This document shows, one piece after another, positions 12,552 to 53,487 of a stretch of 64,000 nucleotides of DNA. This DNA is from a virus: positions 1-64,000 of the IMG/VR virus record IMGVR_UViG_3300025137_005002; one strand, written 5' to 3'. Both the position numbers and the translations under genes were made by a program. Position 1 is the stretch's first letter. Each line of letters starts with the position of its first letter. The notes below the pieces were generated by a model, which searched no databases, had not been told where the DNA came from, and saw only the letters and a list, made by a program, of their open reading frames with translations.

Positions 12552-13904
12552 ATGGAACCTGCTGATCCACAAGTAATGAAAAGAAAACTGAATTCAGTTG
12601 GCCCTGGATTCTGTTTAGCCAAGTGGACTCAACTTACACTTAACTTACAAAATGGAACTGCTCACAGTTGTCATCACCCACCTGTACACCAAGTGTCTAA
12701 AGATGAAATTAAATTAGATCCTAGTTCATTACACAATTCAATATTTAAAAAACAACAACGTAAAGATATGCTCGAAGGTGGCAGACCTAAAGAGTGTGAC
12801 TACTGTTGGAGAGTTGAAGATGCAGATCCAAATGCATTAAGTGACAGACATTTAAAAAGTGCATTTAGTTGGAGCAACGAACACTTTGATAAAATTAAAA
12901 ACAATGATTGGAGTACAAACTTTCAACCTACTTATGTAGAAGTAAGTTTTGGTTATGCTTGTAACTTTAAATGTATGTATTGTAGTCCTGCTATTAGTAG
13001 TGCATGGATGCAAGAAGCAAAGCAACATGGAAGTTTTCCAACCTCTGATAATTACAATGATATCAAATGGTTAGAACGTTCAGGTCGTATGCCGATACCT
13101 GAAAGAGAAGAGAATCCATATGTAGATGCATTTTGGAAATGGTGGCCCGACTTATATCCTGCGTTACATACTTTTCGTGTTACAGGCGGTGAACCATTAA
13201 TGAACAAAAATACTTTCCGTATGATGGATTGGATTATTAATACTGATACACCTAATACAAATTTATTGTTAGGTATTAATAGTAACTTTTGTGTTGACGA
13301 CAAACTGTTTAATAAGTTTATTAGTCAAGCACACAAAGTAGTAGATAGTAACAAAGTTCGCAAGTTAGAAGTTTATACAAGTGCTGAAGCAGTTGGTAAT
13401 AAAGCAGAGTATATTAGAACTGGATTAGATTACAAGAAGTTTTTTGCTAACGTAGAACGTGTACTAGAAGAATTTAAAGATAATAATAAATTTATTATTA
13501 CGTTTATGTGTACTTACAATGCATTGAGTGTAACAACATTTGGTGGCTTCTTAAAAGACCTTATTAAGTTAAGAAAAAAGTATGGCAGAGATTGTATGTA
13601 TATTGATATACCATTCTTAAGATATCCCGAAATGATGGACGTTAAAATACTTCCTGGTAGTTTCGAAGAGTATATGATTAGTACTGTAGACTACATGGAA
13701 CAGATGGAAACTGAAGGATTAGTACATAGTAGCGAAACTGCTAAACTTAAACGTATTATAGAATACTGGCGCAGTCAACGTACTGTAGACCATAGCAATC
13801 ATAGAAAAAACTTTAAAGTTTATACTAAAGAACTTGATATTCGCAGAAGCACTAACTTTAAAGAAGTTTTCCCAGAATATGCGGGTTTCTACGATGCAAT
13901 TTAA
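12552..13904 (+). CDS. Radical SAM enzyme #1, N-terminal twitch domain (type A)
   Basis: FCLAKW...SCHH...ECDYC N-terminal Fe-S domain; CNFKCMYC; TGGEP. Confidence 0.9.
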   Translation: MEPADPQVMKRKLNSVGPGFCLAKWTQLTLNLQNGTAHSCHHPPVHQVSKDEIKLDPSSLHNSIFKKQQRKDMLEGGRPKECDYCWRVEDADPNALSDRHLKSAFSWSNEHFDKIKNNDWSTNFQPTYVEVSFGYACNFKCMYCSPAISSAWMQEAKQHGSFPTSDNYNDIKWLERSGRMPIPEREENPYVDAFWKWWPDLYPALHTFRVTGGEPLMNKNTFRMMDWIINTDTPNTNLLLGINSNFCVDDKLFNKFISQAHKVVDSNKVRKLEVYTSAEAVGNKAEYIRTGLDYKKFFANVERVLEEFKDNNKFIITFMCTYNALSVTTFGGFLKDLIKLRKKYGRDCMYIDIPFLRYPEMMDVKILPGSFEEYMISTVDYMEQMETEGLVHSSETAKLKRIIEYWRSQRTVDHSNHRKNFKVYTKELDIRRSTNFKEVFPEYAGFYDAI

Positions 13905-15099
13905 TACAATTTACATAAATAACATTAGTAAAGAAATTAACCAGCATACTGTTGATGCAATATCAACTAACTGTTATGACACTTTAAATGCTGGTACTAT
14001 GTCCTATGTAGACGAATCACTACATTCCTTGGGCATTAACAATCCGTATTTTATATTTAATGGACCATGTGAATGGTTCGGATCTTGGTCGGATTCGCGG
14101 ATAAACTTCGAAGCTCATACCGAAGTGTACTTCTTCCTCTATGAAGTGTTATCAGTATGGCACAATCACTCCAGATATAATTGTCCAGATGGTAGTATAA
14201 AAAAAGAATGTAAAATCAATGAATTCGAAATGATACAGAACTGGTGCAACAAGCACAACGTTAGTAAGTTCTCTATATTTACAAACGAGTATCGTATGTT
14301 AGAACAATTACAAAATACAAAATACACCAACTGGGCAATATATCCTTTAGATACATTTAGTCTAGGTTACTGCAAACTAAATCGTGAACCTAGCAATAAT
14401 ATTCCAGAACAACTTAATTATAAAATAAACTGCTTTACATATCGCTGGGATCAGCACAGACACGCGGCAGTTTCATTTATACATAATACACTTCCTAATG
14501 ATAGTACTATAACACACTGGCATAGAACAGATGATGTATTACTTAAATTTCCGTTAAACACTAGCAAACATTTTGAAGCATATAGTAAAGGTTGTAAAAG
14601 CCTTATGGATTTGTTGCCTATAACAAGAACTGATGCTGAAACTGAATTAGTTAGTATGCAGGATTTTGTTAACCCAAGTAAAGGAACAATAAATAATATA
14701 GCAGGATCAGATAACATAGAAGAAGCATACGAATCATCTTTTGTTACTCTTGCTTGTGAAACTAATTATGAATATCCTTGGGGACAAATAAGTGAGAAAA
14801 CTTTAGATCCTATAAAGCAAGGATCTCCAATATTATTATTAGCAGGACCACATAGTTTAGATTTATTAAAACATTGGGGTCTAAAAACATTTCACGAATT
14901 TTGGGACGAAGGCTATGACGAAGAACTAGACCCAATCAAACGAATGGACAAAGTATTTGATATCATTATTGATATTAGTAATCAATCATATAAAGAACTT
15001 ACTATAATAAGAAAACATATGAAGCCTATACTTGTCCACAATCGGAACTTAATTAGAACTGGTGCAATTAGAAAACACATAACAAAGGTATTAGCATGA
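13894..15099 (+). CDS. Putative GT-B / GT10-like glycosyltransferase
   Basis: C-terminal FVTLACETNY...ISEKT..PI...KTF..FWDEGYD motif resembling GT10 donor-binding region. Confidence 0.45.
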   Translation: MQFNTIYINNISKEINQHTVDAISTNCYDTLNAGTMSYVDESLHSLGINNPYFIFNGPCEWFGSWSDSRINFEAHTEVYFFLYEVLSVWHNHSRYNCPDGSIKKECKINEFEMIQNWCNKHNVSKFSIFTNEYRMLEQLQNTKYTNWAIYPLDTFSLGYCKLNREPSNNIPEQLNYKINCFTYRWDQHRHAAVSFIHNTLPNDSTITHWHRTDDVLLKFPLNTSKHFEAYSKGCKSLMDLLPITRTDAETELVSMQDFVNPSKGTINNIAGSDNIEEAYESSFVTLACETNYEYPWGQISEKTLDPIKQGSPILLLAGPHSLDLLKHWGLKTFHEFWDEGYDEELDPIKRMDKVFDIIIDISNQSYKELTIIRKHMKPILVHNRNLIRTGAIRKHITKVLA

Positions 15100-16241
15100 A
15101 CATAGGTTGGTTTGGTTTAGGCAAACTTGGAATGATTAGTTCTGAGATGTTAGTTAAGAAGGGGCATACAGTTACAGGGTATGACAAGGAAGAACGCTTT
15201 AGTGGGCTTGTACGAGTGTCTAAGACACCAAAAGAAGCAGTAGTAGGACAGGACTTTGTCTTTGTTGCAGTACAAACTCCACACCATAAAGACTATGGTG
15301 GAGAGAAGCCTATAACACATTTGCCAAACAAAGACTTTGGATTAGACCCTGTCAAAGAATGCTTAAAAGAAATTAACAAATATGCAACAGAAAATACTAT
15401 TGTTGTTTTAATCAGTACAATACTTCCTGGAACAACAAGAAGAGAATTCGCAGGCTTATTAGATAAAGCAAGATTAATTTATAACCCATACTTAATTGCT
15501 ATGGGCACAGTTGCTTGGGATATGGTAAATCCAGATATGGTTATCATTGGAGGCAACAAACCAAACGACACTGATGCAAAAGCATTAATAAAATTTTACA
15601 AAACAGTAATGGAGAATGATCCGCATTATAATATTGGTACATGGGAAGAAGCAGAAGCAACAAAAATATTTTATAACACATTTATTAGTGCAAGGTTAAG
15701 TCTTGTTAATATGATTCAAGACGTTGCCCAAAGTGTTGGGAATATGAATGTTGATGTTGTAACAAATAGTTTAAGTAATGCAGGATACCGAATTACCAGT
15801 GCCGCTTATATGAAAGCAGGCATGGGCGATGGTGGACCTTGTCACCCTAGAGATAATATTGCCTTAAGACATTTAGCGGAACGATTAGACCTAGGTTATG
15901 ACTTGTTCGACGCGATTGCCAAAAGTAGAGAAGTACAAGCCGAACGTATGGCAAAAGAAATATTAAAACATGGAAAGCAAATTTGCTTTACAAGTGATAC
16001 ATATAAGCCAGGAGTAACATACACTGATGGATCTTATGCACTACTAGTTCAACACTATATTGGAAAGTTGGGTGGAATGATTGTTAATGGTTTCGACCAT
16101 GCAGTTGAAGTTATGGTTATAACTCACCCAACTGACCATAACTTTAATGTTGATAAAGCAACAATAGTTTTTGATCCTTGGCGTACATACGAAGCCAAAG
16201 ACCCAAACGTGAAAGTAATACATTATGGAAACACTAGATAA
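15096..16241 (+). CDS. UDP-glucose/GDP-mannose dehydrogenase family protein
   Basis: GLGKLG Rossmann motif, AVQTP, STILPGT, KIFYN, GDGGPCHPRD catalytic Cys. Confidence 0.88.
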   Translation: MNIGWFGLGKLGMISSEMLVKKGHTVTGYDKEERFSGLVRVSKTPKEAVVGQDFVFVAVQTPHHKDYGGEKPITHLPNKDFGLDPVKECLKEINKYATENTIVVLISTILPGTTRREFAGLLDKARLIYNPYLIAMGTVAWDMVNPDMVIIGGNKPNDTDAKALIKFYKTVMENDPHYNIGTWEEAEATKIFYNTFISARLSLVNMIQDVAQSVGNMNVDVVTNSLSNAGYRITSAAYMKAGMGDGGPCHPRDNIALRHLAERLDLGYDLFDAIAKSREVQAERMAKEILKHGKQICFTSDTYKPGVTYTDGSYALLVQHYIGKLGGMIVNGFDHAVEVMVITHPTDHNFNVDKATIVFDPWRTYEAKDPNVKVIHYGNTR

Positions 16242-16752
16242 ACTTCAACCTCTAGAATATCATACAGTAGAAATTTCTCCAACTTGGGAAATAGGAGACT
16301 ACGAAGAGTTTGATTACAAAAGAGTAGAGTATGGAGACTTTAAGCAATTAGCAAAATGGAAGACTGCTGGCTTTACACATGATAACTTTACTGGTATGAT
16401 GTTTAATGACCAAAAAAGTATTCCACAATGGGCAAAGAATATAGCAACAGTATTAGAATGGAAAGACTGCGGTTTTACATTTTACAAAATGACTACTGGA
16501 GATATACTACCGCCACACTCAGACCACTTCAACAAGTATAAAGAACTTTTTGGAATAGAGTCAAGTGATGACGTATTACGTGGTTTGGTATTTTTAGAAG
16601 ATAAAAAGCCAGGACACATTTTTGAAGTAGACCAGTATAGTATGAACTGGCACAAAGGAGGTGCCGTTTTATGGAGAGGTAGAGTTCCCCATAGTGCAGG
16701 CAATATAGGATATGAACCAAGATACACGTTACAAATTACAGGACATTATTAA
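16225..16752 (+). CDS. 2OG-Fe(II) oxygenase-like protein
   Basis: HSD...H...N...R.TLQITG facial triad and 2OG-binding Arg. Confidence 0.7.
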   Translation: METLDKLQPLEYHTVEISPTWEIGDYEEFDYKRVEYGDFKQLAKWKTAGFTHDNFTGMMFNDQKSIPQWAKNIATVLEWKDCGFTFYKMTTGDILPPHSDHFNKYKELFGIESSDDVLRGLVFLEDKKPGHIFEVDQYSMNWHKGGAVLWRGRVPHSAGNIGYEPRYTLQITGHY

Positions 16753-17413
16753 TCTAGATATTCTAGAGTTATTAAAGGACTACGGCGTTGGGTGGAATAA
16801 TCCTTACGACATCATATACGAGTTTGAAAAAAGACTCGCTGAATACACAGGTGCACCTTATGTAGTTACAACAGATTGTTGTACACACGCACTTGAACTA
16901 GCCCTACGTTGGTATAAAAAGAGACACCCTAGTCATGTACCTTCAATAAAGATACCTGACCAAACATACCTTAGTATTCCAATGATGCTTGAAAAGGTTG
17001 GACTTTCTTTTAGTATTACTGAAGAAGAATGGATTGGTGAGTACCAGTTAGGACCTAATCTTCCTATATGGGATAGTGCTAGAAGATTACAAAAGAATAT
17101 GTACGAAGAAGAAACGTTCAAATGCTTGAGTTTTGGACACGGTAAACCATTGACAATTGGCAAAGGAGGTGCTATACTATTAGATAGTAGAGAAGCCTAT
17201 GATTGGCTAATTCGTGCCAGGTACGATGGTAGAGATCTAAAAGTTTCTCCTTGGGATAAAGAACACTACGAAACATTGGGTTTTCATTACTATATGTCAC
17301 CAGACCAAGCGGCGATAGGTATAGTTAAGTTAGACCAATACAAAGAAACTGCTCCTAAGAAAGTAGCATATCCAAGTATTAAGAAATGTTTCATGATAGG
17401 GAATAATAAATGA
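16712..17413 (+). CDS. DegT/DnrJ/EryC1/StrS PLP aminotransferase (short form)
   Basis: FEKRLAEYTG, CTHALELAL, DSA, SFGHGKPLTIGKGG, GFHYYM...AAIG. Confidence 0.82.
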   Translation: MNQDTRYKLQDIINLDILELLKDYGVGWNNPYDIIYEFEKRLAEYTGAPYVVTTDCCTHALELALRWYKKRHPSHVPSIKIPDQTYLSIPMMLEKVGLSFSITEEEWIGEYQLGPNLPIWDSARRLQKNMYEEETFKCLSFGHGKPLTIGKGGAILLDSREAYDWLIRARYDGRDLKVSPWDKEHYETLGFHYYMSPDQAAIGIVKLDQYKETAPKKVAYPSIKKCFMIGNNK

Positions 17414-18414
17414 TTATAGAATCACATAATGAATGGGATCCATTAAAGAAAGTTATACTAGGAGATGTGCATGGTGCAAGATTTCCAAAGTACGATGATG
17501 TTTTTAATGAAGTTGCTAAACATAGTAAGTGGACAGAAACTGCACAACCAGTTGGACCAATTAACCAAGACATTATTGACTTAACAGATCACGAGTTAAG
17601 ACAGTTTGAAAAAGTATTAGTTGAACTAGGAATTGAAGTTTTACGTCCAAGACAATTAGACTTTCAACAAACTGTACATGGATACAGATACTTTGCAGAT
17701 GGTTTTTATAATTACTGTCCTAGAGATGTTATCCTTGTAATAGGAAACGTTGTAATTGAAACACCAGTATTGTTTCATAGTAGGTTTCATGAAACAGAAG
17801 CATACCGTGACATTAGACACGAAGCAATGAAGTCAGGTGTTAAATGGATTAGTGCACCAAGACACGCACTACCAGTACATGAAGTATTTGAAGATGGTAA
17901 ACTTACAGAGAAGACTCCAATCTTTGATGCGGCTAACGTAATGCGTTTTGGTAATGACTTATTATACTTAAAAAGTCAAACAGGTAATGCCGCAGGTGCC
18001 CAATGGTTAAGTACAGTACTTGGACCAGAGTACACAGTTCATATATGGGAAGACGTTTATGCGTATGCTCATATTGATAGTACTATCGCGGCACTTAACG
18101 AATCAACTCTTTTAATTAACAAACAAAGAGTTAAGCCATCACAGTTACCAAAGTTTTTAAAGAAGCATAAACGAATTTGGGTTGACAGTGTAGAGGATAT
18201 GGAGTTTCACAAATATCCATATGCTAGTAATTGGATTGGAATGAATGTGTTAAGCATTGATCCTAAAACAGTTGTCGTCGATCCTAGACAACCAAAGTTA
18301 ATTAAGAAATTAGAAAAAGCAAAGTTTGAAGTTATACCTGTACAACTTACACACAGTCGTACATTAGGTGGCGGACATCATTGTGCAACATTAGATTTGG
18401 AGAGACGAGCATAA
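17410..18414 (+). CDS. Amidinotransferase (StrB1/glycine amidinotransferase family)
   Basis: SHNEWDPLK.VILG, CPRD, FDAAN, HIDST, LGGGHHCATLD (catalytic Asp-His-Cys). Confidence 0.9.
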   Translation: MIIESHNEWDPLKKVILGDVHGARFPKYDDVFNEVAKHSKWTETAQPVGPINQDIIDLTDHELRQFEKVLVELGIEVLRPRQLDFQQTVHGYRYFADGFYNYCPRDVILVIGNVVIETPVLFHSRFHETEAYRDIRHEAMKSGVKWISAPRHALPVHEVFEDGKLTEKTPIFDAANVMRFGNDLLYLKSQTGNAAGAQWLSTVLGPEYTVHIWEDVYAYAHIDSTIAALNESTLLINKQRVKPSQLPKFLKKHKRIWVDSVEDMEFHKYPYASNWIGMNVLSIDPKTVVVDPRQPKLIKKLEKAKFEVIPVQLTHSRTLGGGHHCATLDLERRA

Positions 18415-19922
18415 TGTTAACACTAGGAGTTAGTTCAGGATTTCATGATGCCGGATTGGCAGTTGTCGAAGACGGTGAAGTAGTATTTGCTGGACACAGT
18501 GAAAGATACAGTAAACAAAAACACGACAAAGACTTACACCCTGATATTATTAAACAAGCATTGTCATATGGCAAGCCTGATGTTATTGGGTTTTACGAAA
18601 CTCCTTGGCTTAAGAAGACTAGAGAGTTATATGCCGGACAAGGTATGTTTGGTGATCGTTCAAGTACATGGACAACTAAAGGTGCGTTACGTCAACAGTT
18701 TGGAGACTTACTTCCTAAAACAAAAATTAAAACATATAGACATCACCAAAGTCATGCGGCGGCAGGATTTCAAACAAGTCCTTATAATGATGCAACAGTT
18801 GTTGTTATCGATGCTATTGGAGAATGGGAAACTATTACTATATGGCACGCCGAATATGATGAGAAGATGAATGCAGTATATAAAAAATTGTACAGTCAAA
18901 AGTATCCACATAGTATTGGATTATACTATAGTGCTATGACACACAGACTAGGCTTACGTCCACTTGATGAAGAATACATTATGATGGGCATGGCTGGTTG
19001 GGGTTTACCTACACACTCAAGTAACATACGACAAGCACTAGTACGTGATGATGCTAACACAAAATTTACACAAAACTTGCACATTGGAGTTGACAATGAC
19101 TTCTTAAAAGACGTAAACGAATATGAGATAGCCGCAAGTGCTCAAGAAGTTGTTGAAAAACTTATTGATAATGTAATGGCTAGAGCAAGAGGGTTTAACA
19201 AAAGTCGTAATTTAGTTTACATGGGAGGCGTTGCTCTTAACTGTTTATACAATCGTAACTTAGGTAAGTTCTTTGATGACGTTTGGATTATGCCTAATCC
19301 AGGAGACTGTGGAAGTAGTTTAGGTAGTGCCGCATTAGCATATGGAAGTAGACTTAATTGGGAAACACCATTCTTAGGAACACCTATTGTTGGCAAGTAT
19401 CCATCTGAAGAACTAATAGACGAACTACAAAAGAATAAAATTGTAGGAGTAGCAAGTGGTAAAGCAGAGTTTGGTCCACGTGCATTAGGTAATAGAAGTT
19501 TATTAGCAGACCCTAGAGGTGCAGAAATAAAAGATAAAGTAAATGAGATTAAACGTAGACAAAAGTTTAGACCATTTGCTCCAATGATATTAGCAGAACA
19601 CGTTAATGAATATTTTGAAATGCCAGACAAGTTACCAACTAGTCCTTATATGCAAGTGGTAGCAAAGTGTAAAAAGCCAGAAGAGTTTCCGGCTATTATA
19701 CACGTCGACGGAACAAGTCGTGTACAAACAGTAGACGAACACTTTCCAAGTGGTGTCAGAGAACTATTAGAGAAATGGTATGTACTTACAGGCTGTCCTA
19801 TATTACTTAATACAAGTTTAAATATTAGAGGTGAGCCAATGGTTGATACTAGAGCAGATGCAGATAGATTTGAAAAAGAATATGGTGTAAAAGTTTGTAG
19901 TGATGGTGCAGTAAATGTTTGA
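18414..19922 (+). CDS. O-carbamoyltransferase (NodU/CmcH/TobZ family)
   Basis: HDAG, ERYSK.KHD, HHQSHAA, DAIGE, GGVALNC, EFGPRALGNRS, RPFAP, HVDGTSRVQTV, LNTSLN. Confidence 0.93.
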   Translation: MLTLGVSSGFHDAGLAVVEDGEVVFAGHSERYSKQKHDKDLHPDIIKQALSYGKPDVIGFYETPWLKKTRELYAGQGMFGDRSSTWTTKGALRQQFGDLLPKTKIKTYRHHQSHAAAGFQTSPYNDATVVVIDAIGEWETITIWHAEYDEKMNAVYKKLYSQKYPHSIGLYYSAMTHRLGLRPLDEEYIMMGMAGWGLPTHSSNIRQALVRDDANTKFTQNLHIGVDNDFLKDVNEYEIAASAQEVVEKLIDNVMARARGFNKSRNLVYMGGVALNCLYNRNLGKFFDDVWIMPNPGDCGSSLGSAALAYGSRLNWETPFLGTPIVGKYPSEELIDELQKNKIVGVASGKAEFGPRALGNRSLLADPRGAEIKDKVNEIKRRQKFRPFAPMILAEHVNEYFEMPDKLPTSPYMQVVAKCKKPEEFPAIIHVDGTSRVQTVDEHFPSGVRELLEKWYVLTGCPILLNTSLNIRGEPMVDTRADADRFEKEYGVKVCSDGAVNV

Positions 19923-20586
19923 TATTATCTTTATGAGTTACGAAGAACCAAATGCAGATAAGCATTGGGACATTGTAAAGAAAAAGTTTCCATGGAGTAG
20001 AAGAAGTCATGGAGTAAAAGGATTACCAAACGCACATCAAGCCTGTGCTAAAATGGCTCGTACAGAAATGTATTATGTTATAGAAGGCGACAATCTAATT
20101 AGTGAAGACTTTGATCCAAGTTTTAAACCAGACAAGTATGGCAAAGATGCAGTGTATGTTTGGCGAGCTCGTAATAGTGTTAACGATTTAGTTTATGGAT
20201 ACAGTGGTATTAAATTGTTTCCAACGCAAAAAGTATTAGACGTTGATGTGGATAAAGTTGTAGACTTTACTACTGCAATTAGTACAAAGTTTGTACCTTA
20301 TCAAGTTGTAGGTAGTACAGTACATTATGATACTGATCCTTTCAATACTTGGAAGGCGGCATTTAGAGAGTGTACTAAACTAACAAGTAAAGTAATACCT
20401 GGACAAAAGAACGATGAAGATGATGCTAGACTTCGTACATGGACTACAATAGGCAATGGAGACTTTGGAGACTTTAGTATTGCTGGAGCATTGTCTGGTG
20501 CAGAGTATGGAAAATACAACAACGACTATAAAAATATTAATGACTGGAAATGGTTAGAGGAAAGATTTGAACAAGAAACAAATTAA
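19915..20586 (+). CDS. GT-A-like glycosyltransferase (paralog of 913..1851)
   Basis: FDIIFMSYEEPNA...GVKG..NAH...IEGDN...YGYSGIKLFP...AFRE. Confidence 0.55.
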   Translation: MFDIIFMSYEEPNADKHWDIVKKKFPWSRRSHGVKGLPNAHQACAKMARTEMYYVIEGDNLISEDFDPSFKPDKYGKDAVYVWRARNSVNDLVYGYSGIKLFPTQKVLDVDVDKVVDFTTAISTKFVPYQVVGSTVHYDTDPFNTWKAAFRECTKLTSKVIPGQKNDEDDARLRTWTTIGNGDFGDFSIAGALSGAEYGKYNNDYKNINDWKWLEERFEQETN

Positions 20587-21274
20587 CTTTGTAGACGATA
20601 ATGATTTATTTGGTCGTATTGGTTTACTTACAGGCGACACATTATTCAACGACTTGCGTAAAGCGAGTGATAACTTAAACGCAGACTTTACTGATGCGTT
20701 AAGTTGGGGACAATTAAAAAGCAAACGTTGGTTAGTAGACGAGCTAGTTCGTACAGGTGAAGAATTAAGAACTGTATTTGTCCTAGGAGGATGGTACGGT
20801 ACGTTAAGTGCTATGTTGTTTAATACTAATATGGTTATTCATTACATAAGAAGTTTTGATATAGACGAAGGATGTCAACCTATTGCTGATGCAGTTAATA
20901 ATACCCATGTACAAAACAACTGGAGATTCAAAGCAGTTATAGAAGATATGCATAATATAAACTATGACGCACACACTTGGAGTTGTTGGAGTACTAAAAA
21001 TAGTCGTATGAGTTTTCCAGTTACAGATAGACCCAATACAATTATAAACACTAGTTGCGAACATATAGAAAAGTTTGGAGAATGGTATTACAATATACCT
21101 AAAGGAAAGTTATTAGTATTACAAAGTAACAACTATGATAAGTTACCTGAACACGTTAATTGTGCAACAGGGTTAGAACACTTTAGTGAACAGACTCCAA
21201 TGAGTAAAGTTTTATATCAAGGCGAATTGCCATTAAGCAAGTACACTAGATATATGAGAATAGGAATTAAGTAG
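20567..21274 (+). CDS. Class I SAM-dependent methyltransferase-like protein
   Basis: VFVLGGWYG motif I, SFDID acidic motif II, INTSCEH. Confidence 0.55.
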   Translation: MNKKQINFVDDNDLFGRIGLLTGDTLFNDLRKASDNLNADFTDALSWGQLKSKRWLVDELVRTGEELRTVFVLGGWYGTLSAMLFNTNMVIHYIRSFDIDEGCQPIADAVNNTHVQNNWRFKAVIEDMHNINYDAHTWSCWSTKNSRMSFPVTDRPNTIINTSCEHIEKFGEWYYNIPKGKLLVLQSNNYDKLPEHVNCATGLEHFSEQTPMSKVLYQGELPLSKYTRYMRIGIK

Positions 21275-21558
21275 TGGGATTTAATTTTTGGCAATCGATC
21301 CCACAACAAGAAAGGACAATCAAAATGAATGAAGTATTCATCCCCTATAGTTTTAGAACACGCAGAGGTGCTAGAATTACAAATGAAAGATATACAGAAG
21401 GCAAAAGCCTTTGGGAATCAACAAAAGAGTTTTGCAAGAACAATGTAAAGAACAAGTATGTTGTAGACAATACTGTTTACGGTAAAGGTGTTCGTGTTGA
21501 ACTTGAAGATGAAGCAGACGTAGAAGTGATACACGCATGGATCAACAAGAACTCATAG
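21274..21558 (+). CDS. Hypothetical protein
   Basis: ORF in operon context. Confidence 0.45.
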   Translation: MGFNFWQSIPQQERTIKMNEVFIPYSFRTRRGARITNERYTEGKSLWESTKEFCKNNVKNKYVVDNTVYGKGVRVELEDEADVEVIHAWINKNS

Positions 21559-21770
21559 AAGGATTATCTACGAGAGAATTGCAAAAGGAAAGTGCAAAAG
21601 CACTAGCCACGATGAGTGCAACCAGTGTTAACATTCATCAGTTTAACAAACAAGCACACCATAATAGTTGGAACTGGTACAAAGCAGTAATAAAATGGTA
21701 TGTAGAACAACACGGCGACTTACCCAGCAAAGTCGGACCAGGTAAAGATGTAAGGCTTATATGGGAGTAA
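21537..21770 (+). CDS. Hypothetical protein
   Basis: 77 aa ORF overlapping its neighbours. Confidence 0.55.
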   Translation: MDQQELIEGLSTRELQKESAKALATMSATSVNIHQFNKQAHHNSWNWYKAVIKWYVEQHGDLPSKVGPGKDVRLIWE

Positions 21771-22082: not shown

Positions 22083-22838
22083 ATGAATATAACAATAGCA
22101 GGATATGGATTTGTAGGCAGAGCAGTAGATACATTTGTTGGAACTAAACATTCAACGTTTATTGTAGACCCTGCTTATAATGAAAATACAATATCTTCAA
22201 TGAGTTGCGATGCAGTTATTATATGTGTAAGTACACCAGCAAATACAAACGGTAGTTGCGATATGACTAACGTTATTAATGTAATTAGCGATGCACCGGA
22301 TGTACCTATATTAATAAAGAGTACAATCAGTATAGAAGGCTGGCGTAAACTTAAAGAACTGTTTCCTAAAAAAGACATAGCATTCAGTCCAGAGTTTCTA
22401 AGAGCTAACACTGCCGAGTTAGATTTTGTTTCACAAGATAAAATGTATGTAAGTGAAAGCACTAATCATTTTTGGGTTGAATTCTTTAAAGGAATAAAAC
22501 CAACACTATCTATTTTTTATGGCAATGCAGAAGAATTAATTATAACAAAGTATATGCGTAATAGTTTTTTAGCAACTAAAGTAAGTTTCTTTAATCAAGT
22601 ATTTGACTTATGTGAGTCATTAGGTGTAGACTTTGAAACTGTTAGACGTTATACTACAGAAGACAGTCGTATAACAGACAGTCATAGTTATGTAACAGAC
22701 GAACGAGGATTTGCTGGACATTGTTTTCCAAAGGATACTCAGGCTATATTAAAAACTGCAAACGAAGCCGGCTATGATTTAAGTCTAGTTAGAGAAGCAG
22801 TACAGTATAATGAAAGAGTTAAGTGGACTAAGAAATGA
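22083..22838 (+). CDS. UDP-glucose 6-dehydrogenase-like protein lacking the C-terminal domain
   Basis: GYGFVG, CVSTP, IKST, SPEFLR, KYMRNSFLATKVSFFN, GFAGHCFPKD. Confidence 0.85.
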   Translation: MNITIAGYGFVGRAVDTFVGTKHSTFIVDPAYNENTISSMSCDAVIICVSTPANTNGSCDMTNVINVISDAPDVPILIKSTISIEGWRKLKELFPKKDIAFSPEFLRANTAELDFVSQDKMYVSESTNHFWVEFFKGIKPTLSIFYGNAEELIITKYMRNSFLATKVSFFNQVFDLCESLGVDFETVRRYTTEDSRITDSHSYVTDERGFAGHCFPKDTQAILKTANEAGYDLSLVREAVQYNERVKWTKK

Positions 22839-44731: not shown

Positions 44732-46050
44732 GTAAAACATACTGTCCTATTCCTTGGAACTTCCAAGCAGTAAGAAACAATGGTGATGTTCGTATTTGCT
44801 GTCAAGCAAATGTAACAAAGAACCAGGGTGTGGTTAGACATAAAGATGGCACACCTTATAATGCAGGAAGAGATAGTTTAGTTAGAGCCCGTAATGCCGA
44901 CCTTATGAAAATTGTTCGTAAGAATATGTTAGCAGGTATATGGAGTGACGAGTGTAAGAGGTGTAAGCAAGAGGAAGAAGTTGGACTTAATAGTAGACGT
45001 CAATATGAATTACAAACTTGGAGTAAACTTGATATAAAAGAAGCACGAGCACTTACTAAAGTCGATGGAACTATTGATACAGAACGTGCTCCAATAAATT
45101 ACTACGATTTAAGATTTGGTAACTTATGCAATTTGCAGTGTCGTATGTGTGGACCTACTGATAGTCATAGTTGGTATGAACAATGGACTGACTATCATAA
45201 AGAAGAAGGCTTTCAAGATACACATGGATACGTTAAGTTAAATCGTAATAAAAAAGGTAGATTAGAAACTAAAGATTATAGTTGGCACGGATCTACAAGT
45301 TTTTGGAATAATATTGAAAAGAATTTAGATAAAATTCAGCACGTTTATATGGCAGGCGGTGAACCTATGATGATTGAACGTCATTACGAGTTCCTAGAGA
45401 AGTGTGTTAAGAAAGATGTTGCTAAAAACATATTAATTGAATACAATACTAACATGACAAACTTACCTGACAAAGTATTAGAGTACTGGAAGCATTTTAA
45501 AGAAGTTAGAGTTGGTGCAAGTATAGATGGTATGGGAGAAGTATTAGAGTATCAACGTTATCCAATTAAGTGGGAACAGGCAAAGAAGAATTTAGATAAA
45601 CTAGATAAGTTTGCACAAGAAAACAGTAACATAATGGCATGGATAGCCTACACTGTTACAGTGAATAATGTTTGGCACTTGCCTGAGTTTATGTTATGGA
45701 AAGTTAAATCAAGTGGCTGGAAGAAGATTAACAGTACAATGAAAAGACCAGTAATAACTCATCATGTTGCACATGGTCCAAAGAGAATGAACTTAAAGAT
45801 ATTGCCTCCGCATTTAAAAGAAACTTTAGAAGCAGTTTATAATAATTGGAAAGCCATATTTGCTAGTGAGTTTACTGAATTACAAACAGAAAAGGCTTGC
45901 AAAATCCTTGATAGTGTGTTACAATTTACTAAATCAGAAGATTATGATCAATTAGACGAATACATCAAATTCACAAAATATTTGGATAGAACTAGGAAAC
46001 AAGATATCACAAAAGTTGTTCCTAGATACAAGGATTTGTTTAATGATTAA
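44728..46050 (+). CDS. Radical SAM enzyme #15, type A
   Basis: YCPIPW...ICC...ECKRC; CNLQCRMC; AGGEP. Confidence 0.9.
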   Translation: MSKTYCPIPWNFQAVRNNGDVRICCQANVTKNQGVVRHKDGTPYNAGRDSLVRARNADLMKIVRKNMLAGIWSDECKRCKQEEEVGLNSRRQYELQTWSKLDIKEARALTKVDGTIDTERAPINYYDLRFGNLCNLQCRMCGPTDSHSWYEQWTDYHKEEGFQDTHGYVKLNRNKKGRLETKDYSWHGSTSFWNNIEKNLDKIQHVYMAGGEPMMIERHYEFLEKCVKKDVAKNILIEYNTNMTNLPDKVLEYWKHFKEVRVGASIDGMGEVLEYQRYPIKWEQAKKNLDKLDKFAQENSNIMAWIAYTVTVNNVWHLPEFMLWKVKSSGWKKINSTMKRPVITHHVAHGPKRMNLKILPPHLKETLEAVYNNWKAIFASEFTELQTEKACKILDSVLQFTKSEDYDQLDEYIKFTKYLDRTRKQDITKVVPRYKDLFND

Positions 46051-46762
46051 AGAAGGATATAAAGGTCTAAACAATTCAGTATACATTGATAATGGATTTA
46101 GAATACAAATAGAATCTAGTACTAGATGTAACTGCTTATGTCCTGGTTGTGCTAGAACAAAAATTAAACAAAAGTTTGACGCAGGAAAAAGTAACTTAAT
46201 GTATCCAATTATGGATATGTCATTAGAAGACTTTAAACTATTAGTCCGACCAGAGAACAATATATTTAGAATAACTTATAGTCTTACACTAGGAGATCCT
46301 ATATATAGTGGATCGTTCTTAGAACAGTTAGAATATTTAAATACTTTAGAGAAACGTCCTTGGATTAATTTACATACAAACGGAAGTGGTCGTTCTAAAG
46401 ACTGGTGGTATAAACTAGGTAAACTATTAAAAGGCAGAGACAGAGTTGAGTTTGCTATAGATGGTTTAGAAGATACAAACAAAATTTATAGAATAAATTC
46501 TAAATGGAAAACAATTATAGAAGGCATTAAAACATTAAAACATAGTATAGATGAAATTGATAGTGATGCCGAAGTAGATGTTAGACACATTATATTTGAA
46601 CACAACTATCATCAAACTATCGAAGTTTGCAAACTAGCACAAGAACTAAAGGCTAATACTTTGCGTATTTTTGTTGGTGATGGTAGAACGCCAAAGCATA
46701 TGATTTTAAAAAGTAAAGGGTGGGATATAATTAAGAAAGAAGTAAATGATTATCTATCCTAA
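46043..46762 (+). CDS. Radical SAM enzyme #16, type B core only
   Basis: IESSTRCNCLCPGC, LGDP, TNG, FAIDG, EHNYHQ; no C-terminal Cys domain. Confidence 0.85.
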   Translation: MIKEGYKGLNNSVYIDNGFRIQIESSTRCNCLCPGCARTKIKQKFDAGKSNLMYPIMDMSLEDFKLLVRPENNIFRITYSLTLGDPIYSGSFLEQLEYLNTLEKRPWINLHTNGSGRSKDWWYKLGKLLKGRDRVEFAIDGLEDTNKIYRINSKWKTIIEGIKTLKHSIDEIDSDAEVDVRHIIFEHNYHQTIEVCKLAQELKANTLRIFVGDGRTPKHMILKSKGWDIIKKEVNDYLS

Positions 46763-47096
46763 ATGCAAATATAGAGATGACCAAGTTCCTATCCTAAGAG
46801 TAGATGGATACGTTGGACCTTGTTGTCACTTTGGAGGAGAACAACCCTGGTATGATTTAAAACAATTACTAGGAGAGAAGATAGAACAATTACATATAAC
46901 AAAAGGAACTATGGATGAAATTAATCGTAGTGAAGCAAGTTATATGATTGAACAAAGTTTTACAGAAGCACCTATGGATACTTGTAAACAAATGTGTGAT
47001 AAACCTTTTTTAGAAACAAGTAAAAAGAGTGGCTTTAGTACTGCTAACAACAAAGTAATGATTAAGAATTTAAACAAGAGTAGATTAGATGATTGA
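46746..47096 (+). CDS. Stand-alone SPASM/twitch Fe-S domain (partner of #16)
   Basis: PKC...DGYVGPCCH...TCKQMC, matches the C-terminal domain of type B paralogs. Confidence 0.75.
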   Translation: MIIYPKCKYRDDQVPILRVDGYVGPCCHFGGEQPWYDLKQLLGEKIEQLHITKGTMDEINRSEASYMIEQSFTEAPMDTCKQMCDKPFLETSKKSGFSTANNKVMIKNLNKSRLDD

Positions 47097-47418: not shown

Positions 47419-48528
47419 ATGACTGATTTAAAAACTAGTGAATATGATTTTAGTGCTATACCCTACAATGATTTAGTTAGTGTAGGACAACGTACTTTAA
47501 TACATAGGGATATATTTACAGTAAGTTGGCTACTAGGAAGATTCTGTAATTATAAATGTAGTTATTGTTGGCCCTATGCTCGTAGTGACAGAAAAGATCA
47601 TAGACCTTTAGAACTTTGTTTAAAAACAATAGATGAGATTAAAAGACAGGCTAGAGAAAATAACTTTAACAGTTTTCACTTTAGTTTAAGTGGAGGAGAA
47701 CCAACTTTCCACCCAGGCTATTTAGATATAATGAAACATTTATCTGATGATGCACAAAATACGAATTATACAAGTGTACATATGACTAGCAACTGTAGTC
47801 GAAACATGAAATGGTTTCAAACATATGTTGATTACGCAAGTAAGTTTCACAGGGCTAGTATCACTTGTAGTTTACACGTTGAACACGTTAACAATAAAGA
47901 AAAAATGCAACAATTGGCAGACAAGTTAATACTATGTCAAGAACATGATGTACAAGTTACAATTAATATGGTTATGGTACCACAGTTATTTGATCAGTAT
48001 TATGAAAATGCATTGTTCTTTCATAACCAAAACATTAACGTAACACTAAAGCCTATGAGTGATCCTACGGCGAGTAGAGTTGTAGATGGATATACAGAAG
48101 AAATGAAGCAAAAACTGTATAATGATATGCCACAACGTGCTTATACAGAACAAAAAAATAAATATGTAATAAGACCGAAGCCGAATTGGAAACCCTTACC
48201 GGAAATGAAATTAGACAACGGCACTGTACCACAACATTTTCAAGTTGAGTTTGAAGATAGCAAAGGCAAGAAATGGTACATGGATCAAGCAGAACGTTTT
48301 AATGCGTTTAACTTTAACAAATTCAAAGGCTGGAATTGTAACGCAGGATACCAAGGAGTTATCATAAGAGAACCAGACGGTTCGATTAAGCGAAGTTATA
48401 GTTGCAGTGATGTTCCATTAGGGAATATTGAAACAGGATTTAAATTATTTGATAAGCCGATGCCTTGTATATCACAAAGTTGTGTATCAAGTGCAGACAG
48501 TAAAATACCGAAAAGAAAGATTATATGA
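47419..48528 (+). CDS. Radical SAM enzyme #17 (distinct subtype, C-terminal Cys domain)
   Basis: CNYKCSYC, SGGEPT, TSN; C-terminal CNAG...SC...LGNI...PC...C. Confidence 0.9.
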   Translation: MTDLKTSEYDFSAIPYNDLVSVGQRTLIHRDIFTVSWLLGRFCNYKCSYCWPYARSDRKDHRPLELCLKTIDEIKRQARENNFNSFHFSLSGGEPTFHPGYLDIMKHLSDDAQNTNYTSVHMTSNCSRNMKWFQTYVDYASKFHRASITCSLHVEHVNNKEKMQQLADKLILCQEHDVQVTINMVMVPQLFDQYYENALFFHNQNINVTLKPMSDPTASRVVDGYTEEMKQKLYNDMPQRAYTEQKNKYVIRPKPNWKPLPEMKLDNGTVPQHFQVEFEDSKGKKWYMDQAERFNAFNFNKFKGWNCNAGYQGVIIREPDGSIKRSYSCSDVPLGNIETGFKLFDKPMPCISQSCVSSADSKIPKRKII

Positions 48529-48707
48529 AAACTACAAGAGGAATCTTTGCAGGACTAGACGAGGAATCGTTCAACAAAATTAAAAAAACTTTTAATGTTG
48601 AAGAAGCAAAGGTTGAACCAAAAAAGAAAACCAACCAAGAGAAGAAACACTATGGAAAGAACAAAAGAAGAAATAGTAAAAGAAATAAAGACGATAATAG
48701 AAAATAA
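48525..48707 (+). CDS. Small highly basic protein
   Basis: ATGA overlap with upstream stop; Lys/Arg-rich; 3' end overlaps nfuA-like gene. Confidence 0.4.
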   Translation: MKTTRGIFAGLDEESFNKIKKTFNVEEAKVEPKKKTNQEKKHYGKNKRRNSKRNKDDNRK

Positions 48708-48993
48708 CATTCAGCCAAACGTTGCTATGCACGGTGGCGAAATTGTCTTTAAAGACTTTGATGTTGATTCTGGCAACGTACTAGTAATGTTAAGTGGATC
48801 TTGTTCAGGATGTTCTAGCAGTATGGTAACACTTAAACTAGGTGTTGAGAATATGCTAAAACATTATGTAAAAGAAGTCACAGGGATCACAGGCGTAGAC
48901 GATCCTAACTTTAACGATCCATATTACACAAACTACGATACATTTCAAGAAGAAGAATACTATAGTACAGATGAGTATAAAAAAGAAGATTAA
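48652..48993 (+). CDS. nfuA: NifU-C/NfuA-like Fe-S cluster carrier
   Basis: IQP.VAMHGG.I, L.GSCSGC.SS..TLK.GVE.ML. Confidence 0.85.
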   Translation: MERTKEEIVKEIKTIIENNIQPNVAMHGGEIVFKDFDVDSGNVLVMLSGSCSGCSSSMVTLKLGVENMLKHYVKEVTGITGVDDPNFNDPYYTNYDTFQEEEYYSTDEYKKED

Positions 48994-49375
48994 TAATTGG
49001 GGCGAAGACTTACAACTACTAGAAGGGCAAGACAGGTTACAATACCTAGTTGACCTAGCTCGTAATGCCACATCATTACCTCCAGAAATGAGAACTGACG
49101 AACGACTTGTTCCAGGTTGTATCAGTAAAATTTGGGTAGATGTGGGTTTAGTAGAAAACAAAGTTAAAGTATATTACGATAGTGATGCTTTAATACCAAA
49201 AGGTATAGCAACAATAGTTTGTGATATATTTACTGACAGTACTAAAGACGAAGCATTGAATCTTGCTACGGAAGATTTAGAACCACTAGGATTTATGCAA
49301 TTAGTAACACCACAGAGACGTAACGGACTCTTTAACCTAATAGGTGTAATAAAAGGGAAAGTAGAAAGGTTGTAA
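48971..49375 (+). CDS. sufE: SufE-family sulfur acceptor
   Basis: VPGCISKIW, DSDA.I.KG, TPQRRNG. Confidence 0.9.
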   Translation: MSIKKKINNWGEDLQLLEGQDRLQYLVDLARNATSLPPEMRTDERLVPGCISKIWVDVGLVENKVKVYYDSDALIPKGIATIVCDIFTDSTKDEALNLATEDLEPLGFMQLVTPQRRNGLFNLIGVIKGKVERL

Positions 49376-50849: not shown

Positions 50850-51575
50850 ATGCAATACGAAGAACTGCAAAAGATTATTAGTAATGGTATCACTATTCAA
50901 TCAAGTGGTACAACAGGAACACCTAAACGAATAGAACAAACTCCTGCTAAACTAAAAGCGGCTGATGAAGTTGCAATAGATAGTCAACAACTTACTAGTA
51001 ACTCTAAAATTTATACAATATGTAAAACAACTCATGCTGGAGGTTTGTTAGCACAAACTTTACCTGGCATTCGTATTGGAGCAGAAGTTATTGTAGAAGA
51101 CTTTAATGCATACAGGTTTGTTAGAGAAGTTACAAAGTATACGCATACGCATATTACACCTGACCATGGCAAAGCAATAATAAAAACTAAAGGCTGGAGA
51201 GATTTAGATTTAACAGGATTATGGGTAACTTGTGGTAGTGACAGAGTTCCGTGGTATTTAATAAGTGCCTTTGTTAGTAAAGGTGCAACGTTTATGACTA
51301 ATTGGGGAATGACAGAGATAGGACCTTGTGCTATCAATACAGTTTTTGATAGTATGGACAAGGTAGAAGAATATAGAAGTAAAATTATACACGGTATGAA
51401 TGGCGACGAATCTTTACCAATATTAGGAGATAGATTCTACTGTGATTACCAAATATCTGAATGGAATGAACTAATTGTTAAAGGAGATATATGCGTATAT
51501 AATGATTGGTTTAAAACTGGAGATAAAGTAGTAACTAAACAAGACATATTATATTATGATGGGAGAATAAAATGA
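50850..51575 (+). CDS. Minimal ANL-family adenylating (AMP-binding) enzyme
   Basis: SSGTTGTPK, HAGG, WGMTE, WFKTGD, GR; only 241 aa. Confidence 0.8.
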   Translation: MQYEELQKIISNGITIQSSGTTGTPKRIEQTPAKLKAADEVAIDSQQLTSNSKIYTICKTTHAGGLLAQTLPGIRIGAEVIVEDFNAYRFVREVTKYTHTHITPDHGKAIIKTKGWRDLDLTGLWVTCGSDRVPWYLISAFVSKGATFMTNWGMTEIGPCAINTVFDSMDKVEEYRSKIIHGMNGDESLPILGDRFYCDYQISEWNELIVKGDICVYNDWFKTGDKVVTKQDILYYDGRIK

Positions 51576-52389: not shown

Positions 52390-53101
52390 ATGTATCTAGT
52401 TTTTGATTTTTTACTGTATAAGAATATGAGTCTTCATTCTTACCTTCGAGTATATCTCTATTAGCATTAATAGGAACCCCTTCGATCATACGAATATACT
52501 TTAGTATCATTTGGTCTTCGGTGTCAACACCCCAAACGTTTTTCCAATATCCTTCATTACATATATTCATAGTTAATTTGTTTTCATGAATGAACATTAG
52601 ATTATGTCTATTCTCATGAGCCATTTCTTTTATCATTGTTTCGCGATTAGTATATGCTTCTTTGTATCTTGGGTAAGGTATATCAAATCCACCTGCACCA
52701 AACCAACCTTCTTCACAGTTTTCATTTGATCTATAAACAATTACATACTTACTGTTTGGAAACATCTTATAAATTTTAGGTAAGTCAATACTAAATTGAT
52801 GACACTTAATAATTTTATATCCGTTATTCTGTGTTATCCATGCACTATCTATTTCTTTAAATATTTCTTCTTTAGAAAGTTTATCAAGTTTATTAAAGTT
52901 ATCTCCCCAAGGAAACCCTGGACCAAAATATGATCCTCTATGTGGTATTATATCTGGATCATTAAAGTGTGCATACTGTCTATCATCAGCATAGTCTCCA
53001 GTATCAAATAGATACTTTTTAGATTGTGCCATTACATGAGCAACTGCACTCCATTTACTTCCAGGGGCACCTGTGAAAAATACTAACTTACTTTCGTCCA
53101 T
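52364..53101 (-). CDS. Sulfotransferase-like P-loop protein
   Basis: FFTGAPGSKWS, IIKCH, FP.SK.VIVYR; paralog of 53489..54358. Confidence 0.5.
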   Translation of the reverse strand: MDESKLVFFTGAPGSKWSAVAHVMAQSKKYLFDTGDYADDRQYAHFNDPDIIPHRGSYFGPGFPWGDNFNKLDKLSKEEIFKEIDSAWITQNNGYKIIKCHQFSIDLPKIYKMFPNSKYVIVYRSNENCEEGWFGAGGFDIPYPRYKEAYTNRETMIKEMAHENRHNLMFIHENKLTMNICNEGYWKNVWGVDTEDQMILKYIRMIEGVPINANRDILEGKNEDSYSYTVKNQKLDTFIATLGFE

Positions 53102-53487
53102 TACCTGTGCATTCCGTTTTTATTTTGATAATTTAATATTGCTGACTTAATGGCATCTTCTGCCAATACACTACAGTGAATCTTTACTGGAGGTAGTGCA
53201 AGTTCTTCTACAATGTCCATATTTTTAACTGCCTTTGCTTCTCCTAGTGTCATACCTTTAACCATTTCAGTTACAAGACTGCTACTAGCAATCGCACTTC
53301 CACAACCGTATGTTTTAAAACAAGCATCTTCAATGACATCATCTATTACTTTTATTTGCAATCGCATAACATCTCCACAAGCAGGAGCACCTACCATTCC
53401 AGTTCCTACACTAGAATCGTCCGTATCCATCTTGCCTACATTACGAGGATTTTCGTAATGGTCTAAAACCTTTTTACTATAAGCCAT
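53101..53487 (-). CDS. iscU: Fe-S cluster scaffold IscU
   Basis: MAYSKKVLDHYENPRNVG, GAPACGD, GCGSAIASSS, LPPVKIHC. Confidence 0.96.
   Translation of the reverse strand: MAYSKKVLDHYENPRNVGKMDTDDSSVGTGMVGAPACGDVMRLQIKVIDDVIEDACFKTYGCGSAIASSSLVTEMVKGMTLGEAKAVKNMDIVEELALPPVKIHCSVLAEDAIKSAILNYQNKNGMHR

Follow-up and report, generated by a model that had tools for sequence, protein, structure and literature searches.

An intact array of 17 radical SAM genes with iron-sulfur helper genes in an uncultured marine jumbo phage, probably T4-like

We analysed the first 64 kb of the 76,478-bp viral record IMGVR_UViG_3300025137_005002 from IMG/VR (CheckV completeness ~21%); this stretch of 64,000 nucleotides is referred to as the window, and coordinates are those of the window unless stated otherwise. 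It carries 17 radical S-adenosylmethionine (SAM) genes, which fill 21.4 kb of the 76.5-kb record (more than a quarter of the fragment), along with genes for iron-sulfur (Fe-S) cluster assembly and for sugar-type chemistry. The array is real, intact, under selection and widespread, and the pattern that it represents has been in the literature since 2017. We favor the possibility that the locus is a variable tailoring island, in which the radical SAM set would tailor a sugar- or aminocyclitol-type molecule and the Fe-S helpers would play an auxiliary part; this is a tentative working model, to which we give a probability of roughly 0.45.

Results

One family of radical SAM proteins in three types

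A preliminary description of this DNA had reported 17 open reading frames (ORFs) with the radical SAM motif CxxxCxxC, 16 of them in 23.9-48.5 kb and nearly all overlapping a neighbour on the + strand. Our translation scan agrees with this count, finding the motif in exactly 17 of the 64 plausible ORFs of the window. One of these genes starts at 12501 and the other sixteen lie within 23949-48528; all are on the + strand, and adjoining array genes overlap by 1-68 nt. The motif is not a chance occurrence because 16 of the 17 proteins match Pfam Radical_SAM (PF04055), 11 of them above the gathering score, because the sole protein with no such match (12501) is a member of NCBIfam family NF033640 at 322.7 bits, and because all 17 proteins join into one family by phmmer links.

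Ten of the proteins, which we call type A, are full-length members of NF033640 ('N_Twi_rSAM'), with scores of 237.6-423 bits against a cut-off of 170; the remaining seven reach 25-50 bits over the core only and are not members. Genes are named here by their start positions, and dN/dS (the ratio of non-synonymous to synonymous substitution rates) was computed pairwise against G006, a 306,714-bp viral record that is 87% complete and was recovered by a scan with the 42133 protein. The type A genes are 12501-13904 (CNFKCMYC at residue 154; dN/dS 0.13), 26188-27600 (the core type A gene and most conserved ortholog group; 423 bits; dN/dS 0.068), 27605-28738 (237.6 bits), 31255-32610 (263.8 bits; dN/dS 0.18), 34500-35807 (360.9 bits; dN/dS 0.17), 37795-39069 (242.9 bits; dN/dS 0.19), the tandem pair 39809-40990 and 40983-42161 (273 and 284 bits), 42133-43644 (335 bits; 88% identical in G006 and in a further record, G007; dN/dS 0.078) and 44728-46050 (361.5 bits). 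The two members of the tandem pair are sisters in the tree and represent a lineage-specific duplication, because both correspond to a single G006 gene (62% and 46% identity). Type A paralogs are otherwise divergent, at only 21-36% identity to each other. Invariant in all ten are C11, C29(/C30), C94 and C97 of an N-terminal twitch domain, then C150/C154/C157 and GGE. In a wider set of 98 sequences, viral as well as cellular, invariance or conservation of at least 90% extends to the twitch and SAM-cluster cysteines, GGE, N257, S280 and R292.

In the six type B proteins the SAM motif lies near the N-terminus and a twitch-like domain of the form 'C...G...PCC...C..C' lies at the C-terminus, with C255, C276, C345 and C349 invariant. 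These are encoded at 23949-25034 (Pfam Radical_SAM 35.9 bits; dN/dS 0.075), 25034-26191 (32.5 bits; C-terminal PCC..G motif; dN/dS 0.15), 32924-34519 (25.8 bits; a long insert and an acidic tail in the family alignment; dN/dS 0.15), 36669-37814 (36.3 bits; dN/dS 0.048), 43637-44731 (22.4 bits, plus a C-terminal SPASM match of 19.3 bits; dN/dS 0.094) and 46016-47096. The last of these is split: 46016-46762 (Radical_SAM 41.3 bits) has no C-terminal domain, and the overlapping ORF 46746-47096 (SPASM 19 bits) encodes that domain as a detached twitch piece. The split is kept in G006, with both pieces under purifying selection (dN/dS 0.14 and 0.07). Thus the proposal that each enzyme carries, or is paired with, an auxiliary Cys-rich domain holds for both types, given the invariant cysteines of types A and B and the pairing of 46016 with 46746. 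With regard to the SPASM model itself (PF13186), 26188 alone passes the cut-off (22.4 vs 21.5 bits), its match being N-terminal, and 34500, 43637 and 46746 fall just under 21.5 at 19-19.5 bits.

Profile comparisons relate the two types to each other. The N-terminus of type A aligns with the C-terminus of type B (hhalign E 5e-5, probability 67%, against 0.5% for the control), and the two cores align at E 8e-16, indicating that types A and B are domain-order-swapped relatives. A third type is represented by 47419-48528 alone (Pfam 52.3 bits; dN/dS 0.053; 74% identical in G002, a complete 328,149-bp genome with direct terminal repeats). This protein is weakly viperin/MoaA-like; its scores of 44.3 bits on NF038283 (viperin_w_prok, cut-off 180) and 28.8 bits on TIGR04278 (cut-off 450) place it outside the viperins, and type A copies score 19-29 bits on the viperin models, far below the cut-off.

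The copies are intact and under purifying selection

All radical SAM copies with a counterpart in G006 have dN/dS of 0.05-0.34 (27605 sits at the junction of the two G006 record ends), and the cluster-ligand cysteines are kept in all 17 proteins. The preliminary description had considered relaxed selection and loss of ligands as outcomes that would count against it, and we found neither. Because the ligands are invariant and the dN/dS values low, the copies do not appear to be decaying; the sequence comparison supports an array of functional copies.

Phage origin and environmental occurrence

The phage origin of the contig is well supported because the 76-kb contig aligns collinearly with G006 over its full length (70-87% nucleotide identity) and because G006 carries a T4 gp23-family capsid gene (E 2e-99), as do the more distant relatives G001-G004; these include the complete genome G002, which has genes in common with the contig. 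No structural gene, gp23-family major capsid gene included, was found on the 76-kb record itself. Several PHROG families that are usual in large phages are represented in the flank of the record (an ATPase, a VWA/'HNH' protein, a thymidylate-synthase homolog, QueE/QueD and a tail-fibre-like protein), and the VWA protein is 35-45% identical to jumbo-phage proteins, e.g. those of PA5oct and Atu_ph07. The source is probably a T4-like jumbo phage, marine and uncultured, whose genome would measure roughly 310-350 kb.

The radical SAM island spans both ends of the G006 record. The place where that record begins and ends corresponds to window 29545-31255, a 1.7-kb stretch inside the array that lacks ORFs of 84 aa or more and has an AT skew of ~0; the small ORFs that it does hold, on both strands, share just 45-67% identity with those of G006.

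At least 4 studies have yielded seawater metagenomes that contain near-identical DNA. Two metatranscriptome contigs (X9 and X10) cover the whole array; they were assembled from RNA libraries in which DNA carry-over is possible, so they are no proof of expression. In one seawater DNA run (X3) the summed contig depth was 96-129 over window 31000-33000 and 12-25 over most other parts of the array, which suggests that other co-occurring phages share this stretch.

A small conserved core and a large accessory set among viruses

A pattern scan found relatives encoded on at least 553 IMG/VR contigs; the locus counts given here are for the best 80 of these, within 10 kb either side of the core gene. 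Nearly all 80 loci have 2-8 full type A copies in that interval, and copies over the family cut-off number ~17 in the record G001 and ~14 in G002. Orthologs of the core gene itself (26188 type) comprise 2839 metagenome proteins at E<1e-10, many of them 65-69% identical and on contigs of up to 346 kb. When 302 collected type A proteins were grouped at 45% identity, 93 clusters resulted, of which one is universal, one is present in half of the loci and the rest are rare; the second commonest ortholog group is that of 44728, whose cluster occurs in 41 of 82 loci. At >=45% identity, G002 has orthologs for only 4 of the 17 window genes. As judged from these sequence groups, the family consists of a small conserved core and a large accessory set with fast turnover. 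Among phages that can be cultivated, Vibrio phage K566 (3-4 copies) and KVP40-like phages carry distant arrays.

The partners of the core type A gene are uneven in frequency, with 20567 present in 63 of the 80 loci, the type B gene 23949 in 58 (orthologs at >=40% identity), 19915 in 52, 47419 in 34-50, 21537 in 35 and 35762 in 18. The core common to most related phages is made up of a GT-A-like gene (19915), a methyltransferase-like gene (20567), type B 23949 and type A 26188; the remaining radical SAM copies are interchangeable extras, which vary from one genome to another. In B-to-A gene pairs the overlap is 4-20 nt. Only in 16 of 58 loci is the core type A gene immediately preceded by the type B ortholog, so B-then-A pairing is no more than a tendency.

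Fe-S helper genes

Three Fe-S helpers are clearly recognizable in the window and all are kept in G006: a NifU-domain protein (48595-48993, + strand; Pfam NifU 76 bits), SufE (48971-49375, + strand; Pfam SufE 93.4 bits) and an IscU scaffold (53101-53532, minus strand; Pfam NifU_N 170.6 bits; G006 ortholog 75% identical). A short YgfZ/CAF17-like folate-binding-domain protein (28732-29298, + strand) is a weak call: it scores 22 bits on Pfam GCV_T (cut-off 25.6), has 188 aa compared with ~320 aa for full-length YgfZ/CAF17, and matches CAF17/YgfZ structures in the PDB at E 1.7e-4 to 0.02 over ~50 residues. We also considered whether the identity of IscU might hint at the host, and it proved uninformative, at 63-75% in many Bdellovibrionota and 63-71% in other metagenome-assembled genomes (MAGs).

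Among 29 related records of at least 60 kb, 10 have IscU or SufE, including 5 of the 5 records that are at least 50% complete; by comparison, tblastn against 50,697 GenBank phage records gave 16 matches for IscU and 2 for SufE. Because all of the more complete relatives carry at least one of these genes and GenBank phages nearly lack them, co-occurrence of Fe-S helpers with the radical SAM expansion, as the preliminary description had anticipated, is supported at the sequence level. The helper sets differ by relative (SufS and SufE in G002; SufS, SufE and NifU in G001; IscU in G003; SufE in G004), which suggests repeated acquisition. The SufS-type cysteine desulfurase of G002 (L082:188-1291) is full-length and matches solved SufS structures at E 1e-100; the G001 desulfurase is likewise SufS-like.

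The idea that the phage has a self-supporting Fe-S supply was, however, overstated. A cysteine desulfurase (PF00266) was found neither on this ~21%-complete contig nor in 87%-complete G006, an A-type carrier was not found on the 76-kb contig, and no reductant was identified on this contig. The supply chain is partial, host-dependent and variable between relatives, and therefore not self-supporting.

Sugar-type and other partner genes

The array is preceded on the + strand by genes that Pfam assigns to sugar and nucleotide chemistry. Those at 7467-12550 encode an NTP-transferase, DUF6071, a PNP_UDP_1 nucleosidase-like protein, a RuBisCO-like protein, a phosphoribosyltransferase and a phosphomannomutase (PMM)-like HAD protein. 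A tailoring block at 15096-19922 encodes a UDP-Glc/GDP-Man dehydrogenase, a 2-oxoglutarate (2OG)-oxygenase-like protein, a DegT aminotransferase (gene at 16712), an amidinotransferase-like protein and a carbamoyltransferase, all of which are kept in G006 with dN/dS 0.06-0.18. A second UDP-Glc/GDP-Man dehydrogenase-family gene, a cupin and a cytidylyltransferase-like gene follow at 22083-23753. Beyond the array, an AMP-binding (adenylating) domain protein is encoded at 50850-51575 (+ strand; Pfam AMP-binding 43 bits, part of the profile covered).

A GT-A-fold protein is encoded at 19915-20586 (+ strand). Its AlphaFold2 (AF2) model (pLDDT 92.8) indicates a GT-A fold over residues 1-140, with Z of 9-11.4 to B4GALNT1, STIV A197, SpsA, SunS and WrtF, and it also matches the nucleotidyltransferases IspD/MobA; D59 and E11 are invariant in the family. 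A second GT-A-like gene at 889-1851 (+ strand) is a paralog by a phmmer link within the window, and an 889-like domain is fused upstream of a 19915-like domain in three other phage loci (L039, L029 and L006). The protein at 20567-21274 (+ strand) is putatively methyltransferase-like, this being a language-model (Atlas) lead. GT-A-like and 20567-like domains are fused into one ORF in other phages. In still others, single ORFs of 920-1340 aa contain 7-10 repeats of the GT-A-like domain (L010:607-4266, L016:106-4128 and L012:3951-6713), and Pfam detects nothing in the GT-A-like fusion proteins of 519-1340 aa.

Within the array, 35762-36736 (+ strand) encodes a recurrent partner that resembles fold-type-I pyridoxal 5'-phosphate (PLP) aminotransferases: the family profile matches 3if2 and 3g7q at E ~1e-3, the DxA and SLSK lysine motifs falling into register, and D184, S209 and K212 are invariant. 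Such genes occur in the 18 viral loci mentioned above and in 7 loci from genome collections, one of which (L150) looks like phage. A conserved 77-aa protein with no Cys is encoded at 21537-21770 (+ strand; 35 of 80 loci, median identity 66%; dN/dS 0.076). Pfam gives no family for 13834, 19915, 20567, 35762, 39063, 49375, 50015, 51706 or 52364, and single-sequence PDB searches with 49375, 35762 and 13834 returned nothing useful. The list of interleaved genes in the preliminary description thus fared unevenly: NifU, SufE, IscU, the adenylating protein and a PLP enzyme (DegT) were recovered, YgfZ and the methyltransferase remain weak calls, and the nitroreductase-fold flavoprotein was not located, 49375 and 50015 having no matches.

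Several paralogous or unusual genes near the start of the window were also noted. The RuBisCO-like protein (10031-11167; Pfam RuBisCO_large 123 bits) is 90% identical in G006, with dN/dS 0.10. Three DUF6071 proteins are paralogs (4186-5058, 6580-7317 and 8177-8884), one of them with a weak GDSL lipase match, and 2710-3447 and 3428-4186 form a further paralog pair.

Relatives in Bdellovibrionota

With one genome taken per species, prokaryote relatives of the array proteins are overwhelmingly from Bdellovibrionota, at 25-35% identity to the phage copies and on contigs of up to 3 Mb. NF033640 members are present in 27 of 121 sampled Bdellovibrionota genomes and in none of 14 model organisms. As in the phages, the family occurs there in arrays: tandem runs reach 7-9 genes, five array-bearing genomes have 3-19 copies each, and type B, 35762-like and carbamoyl- and amidino-transferase-like genes adjoin type A arrays in the chromosomes. 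In G008, a Bdellovibrionales genome of 1.9 Mb, 16 NF033640 copies lie mostly in tandem runs at 0.79-0.80 and 1.07-1.09 Mb. Viral and cellular sequences interleave in a maximum-likelihood tree, where well-supported branches require at least 5 changes of label and a Bdellovibrionales clade is the sister group of the core viral clade.

Five MAG contigs stand apart from these. L099, L100, L101, L119 and L150 have phage-type core genes at 57-67% identity and are labelled Pseudobdellovibrionaceae, Neisseriaceae, Crocinitomicaceae, Gammaproteobacteria and Bacteriovoracaceae; the phage GT-A-like gene is also on L099, L100 and L119. They are probably phage contigs binned into bacterial genomes.

Discussion

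A tentative model for the function of the array

We rank the tailoring of a sugar- or aminocyclitol-type molecule first because the partner genes fit a logic of oxidising, transaminating, amidinating or carbamoylating, methylating and transferring. A plausible scenario is as follows. Each type A or B enzyme is predicted to hold a SAM-cleaving [4Fe-4S] cluster and one auxiliary cluster, and would abstract hydrogen from hydroxyl-bearing carbons of a nucleotide-activated sugar or cyclitol-like intermediate, with oxidation, epimerisation, dehydration or C-C/C-methyl chemistry as the possible outcomes. Neighbouring enzymes would then aminate (the PLP aminotransferase-like protein), amidinate, carbamoylate and methylate the product, and the GT-A-fold transferase would move it onto an acceptor, e.g. 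the virion, the host envelope or a small molecule. IscU, NifU and SufE may raise the Fe-S supply for the ~35 clusters that one set of the enzymes would need, with sulfur mobilisation and reductants still coming from the host.

One of the closest known systems is BtrN, a twitch radical SAM dehydrogenase of an aminoglycoside pathway that acts with a PLP aminotransferase. Like BtrN, the phage enzymes are predicted to combine a radical SAM core with one auxiliary-cluster twitch domain, and PLP aminotransferase-like, amidinotransferase-like and carbamoyltransferase genes are neighbours here; the logic in common would be to oxidise a hydroxyl and then transaminate. The twitch domain of type A is N-terminal, however, so that the domain order is reversed (permuted) relative to BtrN, and BtrN is not among the PDB-profile or Foldseek matches listed for 26188.

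Several observations weigh against the tailoring model. Substrate, product and acceptor are all putative, judged as they are from gene content, and NF033640 is not known to have a characterised member; a putative sugar- or aminocyclitol-type substrate, close to the one put forward in the preliminary description, is the best reading of the conserved neighbours. The nearest solved folds of 26188 are only generic, with enzymes of peptide maturation first. The GT-A fold is common to nucleotidyltransferases such as IspD and MobA, and a profile of the 20567 family finds no solved relative in the PDB, which leaves the methyltransferase call as a language-model lead. The copies in G002 are spread over >200 kb and do not form one pathway operon. 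The Fe-S helpers differ by genome and mostly lie >10 kb from the core gene, so their link to the radical SAM load is correlative. Finally, no GT-A-like protein was found next to the Bdellovibrionota arrays, several of which have housekeeping genes around them.

It is also possible to frame the model more broadly, such that repeated exchange of genes would have given marine T4-like jumbo phages and the predatory Bdellovibrionota a common, combinatorial set of radical SAM enzymes with permuted twitch domains. In this broader form each of dozens of subfamilies would catalyse a distinct, undescribed radical reaction on amino-sugar or cyclitol scaffolds to give hypervariable aminoglycoside-like glycans on the virion or the invaded cell, and IscU/NifU/SufE(/SufS) would be a dedicated adaptation feeding the Fe-S load. 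We consider this full set of propositions doubtful, albeit deserving of more credence than any of the rival explanations taken up below.

Alternative explanations

One alternative is that the array modifies peptides or proteins, either by maturation of the kind seen for ribosomally synthesised and post-translationally modified peptides (RiPPs) or by cross-linking, epimerising or glycosylating phage structural proteins, with the GT-A protein as a protein glycosyltransferase. The AF2 model of 26188 (pLDDT 90.6) has as its best Foldseek and PDB-profile matches the RiPP maturases SkfB (6efn), CteB (5why) and SuiB (5v1q), plus 8vpo, and most characterised SPASM/twitch enzymes act on peptides. Furthermore, the peptide S-glycosyltransferase SunS and the PBCV-1 capsid glycosyltransferase are among the GT-A matches, and a conserved 77-aa ORF lies inside the cassette. 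However, the structural matches are weak (template modelling (TM) score <=0.35, identity 11-15%) and the Foldseek neighbours generic, continuing with BlsE, viperin, anSME and MoaA; no leader-binding domain of the RiPP recognition element (RRE) type was detected, the N-terminal domain being a twitch; and beside the arrays there is no conserved short Cys/Ser/Thr-rich ORF that might serve as a precursor, the 77-aa protein having no Cys. As the neighbours are mostly nucleoside diphosphate (NDP)-sugar, aminotransferase and amidino-/carbamoyl-transferase genes, we find action on peptides unlikely. The same neighbours bear on a second possibility, that the enzymes act on nucleotides or nucleic acids in DNA or tRNA hypermodification or in making viperin-like modified nucleotides, since a dehydrogenase combined with DegT, a carbamoyltransferase and an amidinotransferase typically points to sugar tailoring and not to base modification. 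This possibility draws on QueE, QueD and the thymidylate-synthase homolog on the same contig, on the phosphoribosyltransferase, nucleosidase-like and cytidylyl/nucleotidyl-transferase genes of the island, on the nucleotidyltransferase matches of the GT-A-like fold, and on viperin_w_prok being the best NCBIfam match of 47419, with several type A proteins matching weakly as well. Set against this, all of the viperin scores are 19-44 bits where the cut-off is 180, QueE/QueD lie outside the array on the opposite strand, and the same arrays reside on Bdellovibrionota chromosomes. We regard it as the least probable of the three functional alternatives considered here.

The third of these, which we would place between the other two and likewise hold to be improbable, is that there is no common pathway at all and that the array is a fast-turnover library of independent enzymes, used for example in host takeover or counter-defence, with the Fe-S genes acting as general auxiliary metabolic genes (AMGs) that prop up host metabolism. 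Such a library would account for repertoires that differ strongly between genomes (the 4 of 17 orthologs in G002 and the 93 mostly rare clusters), for the scattered copies in G002 and for helper sets that vary and lie mostly away from the core gene; moreover, marine viruses are known to carry IscU and A-type carrier genes as AMGs (PMC5332604). It is less easily squared with the four-gene core that is co-conserved in most loci, with the short B-to-A overlaps and a B-A association that recurs in Bdellovibrionota, or with tailoring genes that are interleaved tightly with the array and co-conserved with G006. An explanation of another kind, in which the contig is a cellular island from Bdellovibrionota or other bacteria that was mislabelled as viral, is close to refuted. 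Bdellovibrionota are indeed the family's cellular home, related contigs do sit in bacterial MAG bins (the five described above) and the 76-kb contig has no structural gene, but the end-to-end collinearity with the gp23-bearing 307-kb G006, the genes that it shares with G002 (complete at 328 kb, with direct terminal repeats), and the PHROG and jumbo-phage matches in the flank all speak for a phage.

Relation to known systems

The preliminary description had held that no characterised system was like this one. That is true of function; the pattern, by contrast, is published and the family is catalogued as NF033640. The ten type A proteins match that family end to end, with the N-terminal four-Cys twitch, CxxxCxxC and GGE, and the difference here lies in a 10-copy array with permuted type B relatives and Fe-S helpers. 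Nishimura et al. 2017 (PMC5332604) described marine T4-like environmental genomes with Fe-S assembly genes, among them TARA_ERS488813_N000010, a T4-like genome with 12 radical SAM genes, and proposed that the virus supplies Fe-S clusters to its own Fe-S proteins. Their paper is confined to gene counts and assigns neither a family nor a function. The helper genes also differ, being an A-type carrier, cas4, grx and paaD in TARA_ERS488813_N000010 and IscU, NifU, SufE and a YgfZ-like gene, with no A-type carrier, on the present contig. A literature search on the N-terminal-twitch family or on radical SAM paralogs of Bdellovibrio found nothing relevant. The window is thus an Fe-S-rich member of an already published gene pattern and not a new discovery.

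NF033640 is a large radical SAM family with no assigned reaction that is under purifying selection and present in hundreds of marine viral contigs and in predatory bacteria. Solving its chemistry would probably add new radical SAM reactions and reveal an unrecognised class of phage-made glycans or small molecules in the ocean. The Fe-S helpers, for their part, offer an opportunity to test whether a virus provisions its own enzymes with cofactors.

Other features of the record

No Rfam family and no tRNA (ARAGORN) was found in the window. On the minus strand at 58054-60877 lie a MoxR-like ATPase gene and the gene for the 434-aa VWA/'HNH' protein, a pair that is 35-57% identical in cultured jumbo phages (PA5oct, Atu_ph07 and Rak2-like coliphages) and in G002. 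Two further minus-strand features lie on the part of the contig beyond the window. QueE-like and QueD-like genes of 7-deazaguanine synthesis are at contig positions 67558-68945; the QueE gene (67558-68454) brings the radical SAM genes of the contig to eighteen and has a G002 counterpart of 85% identity. A 1008-aa ORF (L001:8642-11668) has as its sole match the PHROG 'protease' family phrog_3677 (E 2e-33).

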